From positions 1,024,001 to 1,088,000 of the forward strand of contig OZ250150.1 in NCBI GenBank assembly GCA_965237675.1: a stretch of DNA of 64,000 nt, in the 5' to 3' direction. Each line of letters begins with the position of its first letter. Position 1 is the stretch's first letter. The position numbers and the translations under genes were made by a program. The notes under the pieces are model-generated. The model did no database searches, was not told where the DNA came from, and saw only the letters and a list, made by a program, of their open reading frames with translations. The stretch is from Candidatus Latescibacterota bacterium (GTDB lineage: Bacteria > Latescibacterota > UBA2968 > GCA-2709665). This document shows positions 4,982 through 33,085 of the stretch, piece after piece.

Positions 4982-5347
4982 ATGCTGGTCGATTATCTTC
5001 CGATCGTTATTCTGATGGCCGTGGCCGTTGGGTTCGCAGCCGTCAGTTTAATTATGACGCATCTGTTCGGACCCCACCGTCCCAATCCGGTCAAATTATC
5101 GCCATACGAGTCGGGTGTGCCTCCCGTAGGCGATGCCAGGCTGCGGTTTTCCGTCAAGTTTTATGTTGTGGCGATGCTGTTTATTGTCTTCGATATCGAA
5201 GTCGTGTTCCTATACCCCTGGGCCGTTGTCTTTAAGGATTTGCTGGTCCAGGGGAGTTTTATTTTTACTGAAATGATGGTGTTCCTTGGCGTCCTGGTTC
5301 TGGGCCTTGCGTATGTCTGGAGGAAGGGCGGGTTGGATTGGGACTGA
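4982..5347 (+). CDS. nuoA: NADH-quinone oxidoreductase subunit A
   Basis: KLSPYESG loop, FYVVAMLFIVFDIEVVFLYPWA, C-term GGLDWD, 3 TM. Confidence 0.96.
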   Translation: MLVDYLPIVILMAVAVGFAAVSLIMTHLFGPHRPNPVKLSPYESGVPPVGDARLRFSVKFYVVAMLFIVFDIEVVFLYPWAVVFKDLLVQGSFIFTEMMVFLGVLVLGLAYVWRKGGLDWD

Positions 5348-5422
5348 GGACCGGCGCCACCATACTCCCGGTCGGACGGACGGCGCGTCCGAAGATTTGA
5401 ATTTTAACGATCGGGCAAGGGC

Positions 5423-7195
5423 ATGCCCTCAAAAGAGAAAAACGGAACACCGGTGGCTGACGTGGCGGTCGGTAACCTGACGTCGAGAAAGTTGGAGGAA
5501 CGGTTCGGGGAAGACGTTCTCGAGGTCTCCGAATTCTGCGGCGATTGGACGGCCGTCTGTGAGGCAGACCGGGTTTCGGAAATACTGGCGTTTTTGCGGG
5601 ACGACCCCGAACTGGATTACGACCGGCTGTCGGATGTAACGGCGGTCGACTATTCCGAGTACCCGGGACAGCAGGCGGAGGCCCGGTTCAACGTGGTCTA
5701 CCACCTGTACTCTCATCCACACAACCACCGCTTCCGGCTCCGGGCGAAGGTGGGCGAAGAAAGGTGCGGTATCCCATCCGCGTGCGGGCTGTGGAAAGGG
5801 GCCGAATGGCCGGAGCGGGAAGTGTACGATATGTTCGGCATCAGGTTCGAGGGACATCCTGATTTGCGGCGCATATTGATGCCGGTGAATTTTCGATACT
5901 ACCCGATGAGGAAGGATTACCCGCTCAACGGAATGGGAGAGCGGGATGTAATCGCGCCGGAAGATCCCGGGTTTGAGGGCAATCCTTTCGAGGGCGAAGA
6001 TGCCCGGGACGACGATCCGCTGGCTTCTGAGCGGATGATCCTGAATCTGGGGCCTCAGCATCCGGCAACCCATGGGACCCTGCGGCTCACGCTCGAATTG
6101 GATGGAGAGCGCGTCACCAGGTGTCTTCCGGACATAGGATACCTGCATACCGGCTTTGAAAAACTGGGGGAACACCACACCTACAATCAGTGGGTCACGG
6201 TGACCGACCGGATGAACTATCTTTCGCCGCTGTGCAACAACATTGGTTATGCGATGACGGTGGAAAAACTGATGGGCCTGGAGATCCCCCCTCGCGCCAC
6301 CTGTATCCGTGTGATTCTTGCGGAACTGTCGCGCATTGGGGACCATATGGTCTGGCTGGGCACGCACGCACTGGATATCGGCGCGATGACGGTGTTCCTG
6401 TACACCTTTGAACAACGTGAACGCCTGTACGATATTTTCGAGGCCGTCACCGGCACCCGATTGACCACAAGTTATACGCGGGTCGGCGGGTTGGGGTGGG
6501 ATGTGCCGGACAACTTTCACGAACTGGTTACGGATTTCACGGCGCAATTCCCAAGGGCGGTCGGGGAGGTGGACAGGCTGCTGACCCGCAACAGGATCTG
6601 GATTGACCGCACCAAGGACATTGGCGTGATTTCCGCCGAAGACGCGATTGCGTGGAATCTGACCGGGCCGATGGCGCGCGGCTCCGGCGTGAACTACGAT
6701 TTGCGGAAGGCCGAACCCTATATGGGTTACGAGAATTTTGAGTTTGAGATTCCCGTGGGCGAAAAGGGCGATGTCTACGACCGGTACCTGGTCCGGATGG
6801 AGGAGTTGAACCAAAGCATCCGGATTATCGAACAGGCGGTGAACAATCTGCCCCAGGGCGCCGTAAAGGTCGATGACGCCAAGGTAATTCTGCCGGAGAA
6901 AGACGACGTATACACGGGGATGGAGGAGTTGATCCACCACTTCAAAATAACGATGAACAATCATGGTATCGCGCCGCCGCCTGGGGAAATTTACCTGGCT
7001 ACGGAGGGTCCCAACGGAGAATTGGGCTTTTATATTGTCAGCGACGGAAGCGGGTCTGCTTACCGGTTGAGGGTACGGCCCCCGTCGTTTATGAATTACC
7101 AGTGTTTTCCGCAATTGGTGCACGGACACATGGTGGCCGACGTGGTGGCCATTCTGGGAAGCATAAATGTAATTGCGGGTGAGTTGGATCGATGA
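5423..7195 (+). CDS. nuoCD: NADH-quinone oxidoreductase fused subunit C/D
   Basis: NuoC part ([31 protein letters not shown]) fused to NuoD part ([28 protein letters not shown]-term GELDR). Confidence 0.96.
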
Positions 7196-7255
7196 GTGGC
7201 GTCACCGCACGACCGTCCGCCAATTGCCGTCTTACGTACCAGGAAACCTGAGAAT

Positions 7256-7735
7256 ATGGCGACCGCGTTTTCTGAACAGACACGAGAAAAGTGCGAGGAG
7301 ATTCTCACGCGCTATCCACAGGAATGGCGCAAGGCGGCGATTCTGCCGGTTCTGCATCTGGCTCAGAAGGAGTGGGGGTATATCTCTCTGGAGGGGTTGA
7401 GGTACGTCGCGGATCTCCTGGAAATTCCGCCAGCCCATGCCGCCGGCGTGATGAGTTTTTATCCGATGTTCCACAAAGCGCCCGTGGGCAAATATGTCAT
7501 CCATGTATGCGGTACGTTGTCCTGTGCGCTCTGCGGAGCCGGGGAAATCACGAAATACCTGAAGGAAAAGCTGAAAATCGACGTGGGCGAAACCACCGAG
7601 GATGGACGGTTCACACTGGCCAAGGTGGAGTGCATCGCAGCGTGCGAAGGCGCGCCTGCGATTCTGATTAACGAGGAACTTCATCGCTGCGTGACGCGGG
7701 AGAAGCTGGATCGGCTGCTGGACCAGTCCGCGTGA
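7256..7735 (+). CDS. nuoE: NADH-quinone oxidoreductase subunit E
   Basis: 2Fe-2S ligands CGTLSC...CIAAC. ATG 7256 chosen; the ORF extends to GTG 7196. Confidence 0.94.
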   Translation: MATAFSEQTREKCEEILTRYPQEWRKAAILPVLHLAQKEWGYISLEGLRYVADLLEIPPAHAAGVMSFYPMFHKAPVGKYVIHVCGTLSCALCGAGEITKYLKEKLKIDVGETTEDGRFTLAKVECIAACEGAPAILINEELHRCVTREKLDRLLDQSA

Positions 7736-7755
7736 ACAATTCAATCTAGCCGGAT

Positions 7756-31175: not shown

Positions 31176-31200
31176 CAGTCCGTCATGCGAACCGGTTTGA

Positions 31201-31240
31201 GCTGATCGCTGACTGCTGATAGCTGTAGTTGCTGACCGCT
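31201..31240 (+). repeat. Degenerate heptamer tandem repeat (GCTGANN)n
   Basis: gctgatc gctgact gctgata gctgtag tt gctgacc gct between atpG and atpD. Confidence 0.7.
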
Positions 31241-31262
31241 TTTTATTGGGAGAGATCGGTTT

Positions 31263-32654
31263 ATGAACGACGGCGTAATCAAAGAAATCGTGGGCGTCGT
31301 GGTGGACGTCGATTTTACCGGCGGGGAACTACCGGCCATATACAACGCGTTGAATATCGCGCGCGACGGTCGTGATCGCCTCGTGCTGGAGGTCCAGCAG
31401 CATCTGGGCGAACATTTGGTGCGCTGTGTCGCAATGGACTCGACTGACGGTCTCGCCAGGGGTACCGCGGTGACGGATACCGGGCAGCCGATCCAGGTGC
31501 CGGTGGGTGAGAATGCGCTCGGGCGCCTGTTCAATGTCATCGGGGAGCCGATCGACGGAAAGGGGCCGGTGCCGGAGGATACGCCGCTGCTGCCGATCCA
31601 CAGGGATCCGCCTGCCCATGCAGATCAGGTCACCACGGACGAGGTGCTGGAGACCGGAATCAAGGTGATGGATCTGATCTGTCCGTTTGCCAGGGGCGGC
31701 AAGCTGGGGCTGTTCGGCGGTGCGGGTGTCGGAAAGACCGTGATTTTAACGGAACTCATCAACAACGTCGCCAGCAGCCACGGGGGGTACTCGGTATTTG
31801 CGGGCGTGGGCGAACGCACCCGGGAGGGGAACGACCTGCTCCACGAACTGACGGACTCCGGCGTGATCAACCGGACCGCTATGGTTTTCGGGCAGATGAA
31901 CGAGCCACCCGGCGCGCGCCAGCGCATCGCCCTTACCGGACTGACCATCGCCGAACACTTCCGCGAGGAAGGCGGGCAGGACGTGCTTTTGTTCATTGAC
32001 AACATCTTCCGTTTCATCCTGGCCGGCGCGGAGGTGTCCGCGCTTCTGGGCCGGATGCCCTCGGCAGTGGGATACCAGCCCACACTGGCAACGGAAATGG
32101 GCGCCCTCCAGGAACGGATCACGACCACCCGCAACGGATCCATCACGTCGGTGCAGGCCATCTACGTGCCGGCGGACGACTATACGGACCCGGGCGTGGT
32201 GACCGCCTTCAGCCATCTTGACGGGCGTATCGTGCTGGAACGCGCGCTGGCGGATCAGGGGATGTATCCGGCCGTGGACCCGCTGGCATCCAGTTCGCGA
32301 ATTCTCGACCCCCGCGTGGTGGGCGAGGAACACTACGAGGTTGCCCGCCGGGTGCAGCAGATTCTGCAGCGCTATCACGACCTGCGGGAAATTATCGCCA
32401 TTTTGGGAATCGACGAACTGTCCGAAGAAGACAGGCTGGTGGTGGCGCGCGCGCGCAAGATCCAGGCCTTCCTGACCCAGTGTATGCACGTTGCCGAGGG
32501 CTTTACAGGCATTCCAGGCGAATATGTCAAAATCGAAGACACGGTGAGGGGGTTCAAGGGGTTGGCCGAAGGCGAATACGATGATCTCCCCGAGCAGGCC
32601 TTCTATCTGGTCGGGACGATTGAGCAGGCCATAGAGAAAGCAAAGACGCTTTAA
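31263..32654 (+). CDS. atpD: ATP synthase F1 subunit beta
   Basis: [32 protein letters not shown]. Confidence 0.97.
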
Positions 32655-32680
32655 GGTTCGAATTTTTGGGTGGGAATGCG

Positions 32681-33085
32681 ATGCCGACGTATCAACTTGA
32701 GATTGTAACACCGGAAAAGACGGTTTACTCGGGCGAGGTCGAGAGCTTGCGGGCGCCGGGAACCGAAGGCGGGTTTGGTGTGCTGGCGGGGCACCATCCG
32801 ATGCTGGCCGCCCTGGGCATCGGACAGATGGCCTTTTCCGAACAGGAGCAGGGATCAAAGTCCGTGGCGATCAGTGGCGGGTTCGCGGAAGTCCAGCGCG
32901 ACCGCGTCACCGTACTGGCCGAAACGGCGGAATTCGTGCAGGAAATTGACGTGACTCGCGCCGAGGCCGCGAGAGACCGCGCGCGGCAAAGGCTGGCGCG
33001 AAAGCGGGATCAACAGGTCGACGAGGCACGGGCGAGGCTGGCCCTGACGCGGGCGATCAACCGGCTTCGGATCGGGGACCAATAA
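32681..33085 (+). CDS. atpC: ATP synthase F1 subunit epsilon
   Basis: LEIVTPE, GVLAGHHP, GGFAEV..VTVLAE, C-terminal helices. Confidence 0.95.
   Translation: MPTYQLEIVTPEKTVYSGEVESLRAPGTEGGFGVLAGHHPMLAALGIGQMAFSEQEQGSKSVAISGGFAEVQRDRVTVLAETAEFVQEIDVTRAEAARDRARQRLARKRDQQVDEARARLALTRAINRLRIGDQ

Follow-up and report, generated by a model that had tools for sequence, protein, structure and literature searches.

A complete Mrp antiporter cassette between nuoM and nuoN in a Complex I-ATP synthase gene supercluster of Latescibacterota

The membrane arm of Complex I and the Mrp antiporters share ancestry, and the cooperation of the two in living cells is poorly known. The Nitrospira 2M complex, the rhizobial 'green' complex I and Complex_I_3 of Manganitrophus have MrpD-like genes within the nuo cluster and more than three antiporter-like genes; in such extra-pump variants a single MrpD or NuoM replaces or supplements NuoL, and a lateral helix with a 26-aa insert goes with the extra subunit (PMC9040806). 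Group 3 Mrp systems are defined by an irregular gene order (PMC5703873). Here we analyse a 64,000-nucleotide stretch of DNA, called the window throughout, from a Candidatus Latescibacterota bacterium (genome G000, 5.6 Mb in 3 contigs; G000:C1:1024001-1088000), in which a ten-gene Mrp cassette lies between nuoM and nuoN and nuoN runs on into the atp operon. We think it probable that the locus is an ancestral nuo-atp supercluster with an exchangeable antiporter slot at the nuoM-nuoN junction, whose products are co-expressed as separate complexes. What is new is organisational: the nuo-atp supercluster, the exchangeable slot (Mrp in 19 genomes, a PF16980 gene in 8), a parallel nqr-mrp-atp arrangement and the relocated Fe-S subunit genes. 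In the literature outside subscription journals and supplements we found no full Mrp cassette between nuoM and nuoN, no nuo-mrp-atp cluster and no PF16980 gene in a nuo operon.

The cassette resembles Group 3 Mrp (CPA3) and the Mrp module of the Pyrococcus membrane-bound sulfane sulfur reductase (MBS) and membrane-bound hydrogenase (MBH; PDB 6u8y, 6cfw) in having MrpE, F, G, B and C, a split-off C-terminal part of MrpA and several MrpD-like subunits, and its genes follow the E-F-G-D/E-B-C-H order of mbh and mbs. The definition in PMC5703873 would place it in Group 3. Unlike the MBS/MBH module, it includes three antiporter-like subunits and a conserved 81-aa protein, and it comes without a hydrogenase or sulfane-reductase arm; it is a bacterial module of wide distribution, set here among nuo genes. 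In an MBH/MBS-type complex an Mrp module with its own NuoB/C/D/H/I-like redox arm replaces NuoL/M/N. This is not what we find here, where the full NuoA/J/K/L/M/N arm is present beside the cassette. With the extra-pump variants of Complex I the locus shares MrpD-like genes inside the nuo cluster; it differs from them by its whole ten-gene cassette, its retained NuoL and a helix region of normal length. Compared with the nuoA-N operon of E. coli K-12, the subunit families, the fused nuoCD and the charged residues in NuoL, M and N are the same, whereas nuoB and nuoI lie elsewhere, 7.6 kb separate nuoM from nuoN, and nuoN runs on into atp and has a conserved promoter-like block in front of it.

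The evidence for a slot comes from a survey of 168 Latescibacterota genomes, with orthologues of the window nuoM called at E<=1e-150. While mrpE is present in 117 of these genomes and the nuoM orthologue in 36, a comparison of coordinates places nuoM directly 5' of mrpE in 19, from four genera (15/15 in g1, the window included, 2/2 in g5, 1/1 in g8 and 1/2 in g10). One further genome, G071, has only a distant, 36%-identical mrpE, 28 kb from nuoM. We also compared the nuoM neighbourhoods of ten cassette-less genomes. Eight of them, from families f1, f2, f3 and f9, read nuoL-nuoM-slot-nuoN-atpZ...atpC; in the other two (L098 and L099, from more distant families) nuoN is not followed by atp. Because nuoN and atp are adjacent in these eight cassette-less relatives, the nuo-atp fusion predates the Mrp insertion, and the premise of the original prediction that nuo and atp are separate loci fails in this clade. 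The slot holds a gene of about 490 codons belonging to PF16980 (CitMHS_2, E=3.7e-185) in six of the eight, and nuoM abuts nuoN in two. A phylum-wide search finds the PF16980 gene directly after nuoM in eight genomes (G045, G046, G047, G048, G072, G074, G014 and G015). The Mrp cassette and the PF16980 gene are thus mutually exclusive, 19 genomes against 8 and none with both, and a single genus holds both states of the slot (PF16980 in G074, Mrp in G075). Homologues of the PF16980 protein are called 'sodium:proton antiporter' or 'NhaD/arsenite permease-like' in public sources, under names that were assigned automatically.

In the window itself, the list of open reading frames (ORFs) together with Pfam confirms what the original prediction had described, an unbroken series of 31 genes on the + strand at 4982-33085 with a ten-gene Mrp block between nuoM and nuoN. 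The order is nuoA, nuoCD, E, F, G, H, J, K, L, M, then mrpE, F, G, an MbhD/MbhE-like gene, mrpB, mrpC, mrpD1, mrpD2, orf81 and mrpD3, then nuoN, and finally atpZ, I, B, E, F, H, A, G, D and C. The expected Pfam family is matched by 30 of the 31 genes, the sole exception being orf81, which has no match. Intergenic gaps do not exceed 99 bp, except for four that measure 171-190 bp; a dispersed repeat sits in two of these. The features are as follows.

4869-4897, + strand: best sigma-70-like promoter match, TTGACT-17-TATACT with TG, 10/12 matches, 85 bp 5' of nuoA (consensus match only)
4982-5347, + strand: nuoA (PF00507)
5423-7195, + strand: nuoCD fusion (PF00329 and PF00346)
7196-7735, + strand: nuoE (PF01257)
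7756-9093, + strand: nuoF (PF01512 and PF10589)
9100-10722, + strand: nuoG, short form, 540 aa (PF13510, PF10588, PF22117, PF00384)
10731-11771, + strand: nuoH (PF00146)
11772-11937, unstranded: dispersed repeat resembling a miniature inverted-repeat transposable element (MITE), with terminal inverted repeats, in the nuoH-nuoJ gap (blastn)
11962-12489, + strand: nuoJ, probable start MEQTFFF (PF00499 at residues 84-228 of a longer ORF from 11761)
12575-12880, + strand: nuoK (PF00420; ORF from 12461, Pfam match begins at residue 46)
12941-14800, + strand: nuoL, 619 aa, lateral-helix region of canonical length (Pfam and alignment)
14900-16420, + strand: nuoM (Pfam and alignment)
16451-16966, + strand: mrpE, which opens the cassette (PF01899)
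16966-17253, + strand: mrpF (PF04066)
17250-17567, + strand: mrpG (PF03334)
17564-18133, + strand: MbhD/MbhE-like gene, equivalent of the MrpA C-terminal domain, NuoJ-like (PF13244 and PF20501; NF009159 over cut-off)
18061-18549, + strand: mrpB (PF04039; NF009162 over cut-off)
18546-18905, + strand: mrpC, NuoK-like (PF00420; NF005621 over cut-off)
18905-20422, + strand: mrpD1 (Pfam; solved relatives MbsH, 6u8y_H, and MbhH, 6cfw_H)
20320-21885, + strand: mrpD2 (Proton_antipo_N domain)
21897-22142, + strand: orf81, protein with two transmembrane (TM) segments, no family, conserved among cassette loci
22135-23823, + strand: mrpD3 (NF009310, 737 bits against a cut-off of 564; solved relative MbsH', 6u8y_X)
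23949-23994, + strand: conserved non-coding block of 46 nt, TTGACT...GTTAATTAAT...CTAATAATT, just 5' of nuoN, candidate internal promoter or operator
24014-25462, + strand: nuoN (PF00361; TIGR01770, 465 bits against a cut-off of 332.6)
25539-26214, + strand: atpZ (ATPase_gene1) and atpI (Pfam)
26180-28602, + strand: atpB, atpE (c subunit), atpF and atpH (Pfam)
27353-27519: second copy of the MITE-like repeat, in the atpE-atpF gap (blastn)
28784-33085, + strand: atpA, atpG, atpD and atpC (Pfam)
33124-33149, + strand: strongest terminator-like hairpin, 11 pairs followed by TTTTATT, directly 3' of atpC

Between the stop of nuoM at 16420 and the start of mrpE at 16451 (TTG) or 16460 (ATG) lie 30-39 bp, not the roughly 60 bp first given; the stop of mrpD3 at 23823 and the start of nuoN at 24014 are separated by an AT-rich spacer of 190 bp; and from the stop of nuoN at 25462 to the atpZ ATG at 25539 there are 76 bp, in agreement with the 75 bp to the atp operon first given. 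We found no strong terminator-like site at any of these three junctions, in keeping with the earlier remark that none follows nuoM, and the best promoter-like and the best terminator-like site of the region flank the whole 31-gene block. In the 46-nt block within the spacer before nuoN, TTGACT and TTAATT stand 17 nt apart, and there is a TTAATTAA palindrome. The block is almost unchanged across two genera, with 0-2 substitutions in three congeneric relatives and 11 in G065, and the remainder of the mrpD3-nuoN spacer is poorly conserved. At <=12 substitutions the block was absent from the cassette-less relatives, from the nested locus L011 and from the rest of the G000 genome, where it is single-copy. 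Its composition suggests that it may serve as an internal promoter or operator for nuoN-atp.

The MITE-like repeat measures about 165 bp, with terminal inverted repeats of about 45 nt and 211 blastn matches across the G000 genome; one copy fills the 190-bp nuoH-nuoJ gap, where nuoI would normally sit. Among close relatives this gap varies from 9 to 180 bp and the atpE-atpF gap from 33 to 307 bp, from which it follows that the repeat insertions are polymorphic. The atpH-atpA gap (28603-28783) is part of another dispersed repeat family, which blastn matches 56 times across the genome. Scanning the window with Rfam and for tRNAs gave no matches. Upstream, on the other strand, lie genes for HsdM (a type I restriction-modification methylase, 60-2597, minus strand), a Zn-dependent dehydrogenase and a GNAT protein, none related to the cluster; the nitroreductase and the Fic-domain protein (35553-36890) downstream are likewise unrelated.

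The Mrp block is an autonomous, complete and self-sufficient antiporter gene cassette. Pfam and NCBIfam together find all MrpA to MrpG functions encoded in it, MrpA being split such that the MbhD/E-like gene corresponds to its C-terminal part and D2 (with Proton_antipo_N) and D3 (with a lateral-helix tail) to its NuoL-like N-terminal part. The NCBIfam equivalog cut-offs are exceeded for DUF4040, MrpB, MrpC and MrpD (PRK12668), and the cassette carries its own NuoK-like MrpC and NuoJ-like MbhD/E protein. The closest solved chains are MbsH (1.1e-63) and MbhH (1.9e-62) for MrpD1, MbhH for MrpD2 and MbsH' for MrpD3. MrpD3 ends in a TM-long helix-TM tail; its AlphaFold model (mean pLDDT, the predicted local distance difference score, 80.5) shows helices at 449-471, 486-531 and 536-561, with a pLDDT of only about 50-65 in the tail, and we infer from this model that the tail may be the cassette's own lateral helix.

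A search with MrpD1, taking one genome per species, returned 566 relatives, and all figures given out of 80 refer to the best 80 of these 566; nested copies outside Latescibacterota may lie beyond these 80. All ten genes stand in the same order at 63 of the 80 loci and a colinear subset at 77. The product of orf81 is matched at 71, including all 63 complete cassettes; it belongs to no Pfam or NCBIfam family, and its Atlas matches are only 'hypothetical protein' clusters of about 80 aa. The loci span Latescibacterota, Gemmatimonadota, Alpha- and Gammaproteobacteria (Colwellia, Shewanella), Planctomycetota, Acidobacteriota and others. Only four (L003, L004, L005 and L011) have nuo genes adjoining the cassette, and 76 do not. 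No conserved partner gene was found beside the stand-alone cassettes, the largest flanking family reaching 9 of 76 loci, all Colwelliaceae-like.

The history of the cassette was followed in a maximum-likelihood tree of MrpD1 and MrpD2 with 74 rows, which omits 7 of the 80 loci that gave no MrpD1 or MrpD2 match above 450 residues and adds L086, L089 and the window; G070, whose contig breaks off within mrpE, has no place in it. Family f1 contributes a single clade of nested cassettes (Shimodaira-Hasegawa-like approximate likelihood ratio test, SH-aLRT, 99), with stand-alone or nqr-linked Latescibacterota cassettes as the sister group of this clade, while the nested L011 groups with the stand-alone L010 (SH-aLRT 98). 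A single clade of nested cassettes is rejected by the approximately unbiased test (p=0.013). The cassette has therefore entered or left the slot at least twice. The record of L010 is labelled Opitutales, yet its cassette is closest to the nested L011 cassette; this placement could reflect horizontal transfer or a mislabelled metagenome-assembled genome (MAG).

Outside the slot, the cassette also meets another primary pump. In L008, a Latescibacterota genome of the same order as that of the window and without this nuo type, nqrABCDEF and apbE are followed on the same strand, after about 0.8 kb, by the ten mrp genes and, 117 bp further on, by atpZ...atpD (19-21472). L009 and L015 read nqr-apbE-mrp, and in L006 apbE precedes mrpE. 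Genes of the atp operon lie within 10 kb of the cassette at 5 of the 76 non-nested loci, in three phyla, and are found in the cassette flanks of L022, L031, L035 and L061 (Acidobacteriota, Planctomycetota). Na+-NQR is not homologous to Complex I and has no NuoH. As the cassette stands beside this non-homologous pump as well, the coupling would run via expression and ion economy and not via docking on NuoH. On the side of the ATP synthase, the Na+-binding c subunits of the Ilyobacter/Propionigenium kind have a Gln in helix 1 and a Ser/Thr next to the Glu of helix 2. The c subunit encoded here (GIGRLAG ... AAFIEGVALF) has neither the Gln in helix 1 nor a Ser/Thr after the carboxylate, and the enzyme is therefore probably proton-coupled, judged by its residues.

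The nuo cluster that hosts the cassette is itself rearranged. The original prediction had overlooked that there is no nuoB between nuoA and nuoCD (PF01058 is absent from the window) and no nuoI between nuoH and nuoJ. The genome has only two PF01058 hits, both about 2.7 Mb from the cluster. One is a lone nuoB at G000:C1:3773482-3773808 (L083 9423-9917, minus strand) within a suf operon, with SufB, SufD, SufS, an Rrf2 regulator, an NfuA-like protein and a radical SAM protein as neighbours; its product is 89-93% identical to the in-cluster NuoB of G001, G065 and G070. The gene is not beside nuoCD in G002-G004 and not near the nuo cluster in G061, G063, G046 and G047; nuoB lies outside the cluster in genera g1, g2 and g3, and inside in G065, G070 and G001. 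The other hit belongs to a second nuo cluster of the 11-subunit type (A-B-CD-H-I-J-K-L-M-N, C1:3780964-3791933), whose genes are 34-47% identical to those of the window. G001-G004, G061, G063, G046 and G047 have this lone nuoB too, some 8 kb away from the second nuo cluster; in G000 a separate nuoEFG-like set lies at C1:3916742-3920716. A lone nuoI was found at G000:C1:3200357-3200728 (L101 6295-6792; TIGR01971, 144.8 bits against a cut-off of 113) between the gene for RNase Y and one for an IscU-type NifU_N protein, which directly follows it. In all five genomes checked nuoI lies outside the nuo cluster, each of G001-G004 also having a lone copy, and nuoJ directly follows nuoH in all four nested relatives from the MrpD1 search. 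A nuoI hidden in the long nuoJ ORF was ruled out, the N-terminal 67 residues being read-through of the dispersed repeat. NuoA to NuoN are thus all encoded in the genome, twelve subunits in the cluster with C and D fused, and we infer that the lone NuoB and NuoI serve this Complex I. Both relocated Fe-S subunit genes adjoin Fe-S scaffold or assembly genes.

In an alignment to E. coli NuoL/M/N, all six antiporter-like subunits (NuoL, M, N and MrpD1-3) retain the TM5 Glu, the TM7 Lys and the TM12 Lys/Glu, which bears out the original prediction; the TM8 Lys is retained too, but is shifted by one column in NuoN and absent in NuoL, as in E. coli. NuoL, M and N carry the conserved set of TM5 Glu, TM7 Lys, TM8 Lys/His and TM12 Lys/Glu. 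After residue 470, NuoL has 150 residues here, 145-151 in 15 relatives whose slot holds Mrp, PF16980 or nothing, and 143 in E. coli. This region is therefore of normal length and lacks the lateral-helix extension described in PMC9040806. No nuo or mrp gene was lost or fused upon nesting. In G065 (L086 9997-10460, 10837-12685), nuoJ and nuoL each match as two overlapping pieces in different frames, possibly through frameshifts or long-read assembly errors.

The nested state could also be neutral: the nuoM-nuoN junction would merely be permissive or prone to recombination, and the cassette would persist without functional coupling since its excision would damage the operon. A cassette that operates on its own in many phyla is what one would expect in this case, as are a nuo cluster that is otherwise rearranged in the clade, with nuoI outside in 5/5 genomes checked and nuoB in or out by genus, and MITE-like repeats whose presence in intergenic gaps varies among close relatives. 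It is harder to see, however, why two unrelated transporters, both annotated as Na+/H+ antiporters, should share one slot exclusively, why the cassette should also stand between nqr and atp and beside the atp operons of Acidobacteriota and Planctomycetota, and why the nested state should have arisen or been kept at least twice. We hence regard neutral insertion as unlikely.

A physical hybrid fares worse. Here the Mrp proteins would dock on Complex I, either adding a Na+ module to it or forming another membrane arm for the redox arm that NuoH anchors, to give an MBH/MBS-like complex with up to six antiporter-like subunits. The position of the block between two membrane-arm genes, the adjacency of nuo type and cassette in all 19 genomes that have both, the nearness of MrpD1 and MrpD3 to MbsH/MbhH and MbsH' of true Mrp-redox hybrids and the charged residues retained in all six subunits would fit such a complex. 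Yet NuoL shows no lateral-helix extension, unlike the 2M and Manganitrophus complexes with the 26-aa insert reported in PMC9040806; the cassette retains its full subunit set, with nothing lost or fused in nuo or mrp; 76 of 80 loci have no redox genes beside the cassette; the same cassette adjoins Na+-NQR, which offers no NuoH; and a single-gene transporter occupies the same slot in relatives. We therefore consider docking very improbable. We consider it equally improbable that in these Latescibacterota the complete Mrp module binds Complex I, or links it to the ATP synthase, in a six-antiporter-subunit assembly with built-in Na+/H+ exchange. If true, such an Mrp-Complex I assembly would mirror in bacteria the passage from Mrp through MBH/MBS to Complex I. 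The original prediction had left the choice between a co-regulated H+/Na+ circuit and a hybrid or alternative-arm Complex I. The first fits the operon-like block, an RNA contig from nuoM to mrpD1, the PF16980 gene in the same slot and the sister nqr-apbE-mrp-atp arrangement; the second finds no support in the complete cassette, the 76 of 80 loci free of nuo, the unextended NuoL, the absence of gene loss and the Na+-NQR neighbour.

Misassembly of the junctions, which had been raised as a possibility, is ruled out by bridging contigs from two studies and by a nuoM-mrpE order common to 19 genomes. In run X1, short-read contigs with 0 mismatches extend over 14500-17737 and 22711-26500 and bridge all three junctions, and an X3 contig from a different study covers 15997-16792, again with 0 mismatches, and bridges nuoM-mrpE. 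Since X1 is possibly the genome's own sample, the independent support comes from the X3 contig and from the comparison of genomes. One 3826-nt contig of RNA run X19, which stems from a relative of about 91% identity, covers 15509-19332, from nuoM into mrpD1, and a contig of run X20 covers 17146-18993; both are consistent with co-transcription. RNA contigs of both runs stop immediately 5' of the nuoN start, at 24004 and 24007, a weak hint at a transcript start there. At 90% likeness no RNA contig covers mrpD3, an absence from which we draw no conclusion.

Several points weigh against a co-expressed supercluster with an exchangeable slot. Kin are not independent, and the 19 nested genomes may trace to as few as two events. 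The strict adjacency of this nuo type and the cassette (19/19) is also what a physical link predicts. Among solved structures, MrpD1 and MrpD3 come nearest to MBS and MBH subunits, and in these complexes the Mrp module does join a redox arm. Transport activity and ion specificity, of the cassette as of the PF16980 protein, rest on family names. The X19 and X20 libraries may contain DNA carry-over, and contigs cannot prove a single transcript.

With these points in mind, the nuo-atp supercluster with its exchangeable slot may be pictured as follows. In the ancestral Latescibacterota supercluster, nuoN would have been directly followed by atpZIBEFHAGDC, and in the lineage of the window the slot would have received a complete ten-gene cassette of the Group 3 kind, resembling the archaeal MBS/MBH Mrp module. 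One long transcription unit would then give rise to Complex I, a separate Mrp complex and an H+-type F1Fo ATP synthase, with the internal promoter-like element possibly acting before nuoN-atp. Within the Mrp complex the subunit order would be D3, which brings a lateral helix of its own, then D2, D1, the C/A'/B parts and finally F, G and E. Complex I itself would be canonical and would draw NuoB and NuoI from genes elsewhere in the genome. It would build the proton-motive force that the ATP synthase consumes, while Mrp would exchange Na+ (or K+) for H+ and thus balance the proton and sodium gradients and the cytoplasmic pH.

The arrangement has consequences beyond this locus. Complex I genes can be scattered, a point to heed when the completeness of Complex I in MAGs is called automatically. 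The slot amounts to a natural experiment, in which one conserved position is filled in some genomes by the ten genes of an Mrp complex, in others by one gene for a putative Na+/H+ antiporter and in none by both, and its variants supply constructs for heterologous tests of coupling. The exclusive use of the slot, together with the nqr-mrp-atp cluster, suggests that selection has favoured producing a cation/proton exchanger alongside the primary pump and the ATP synthase.

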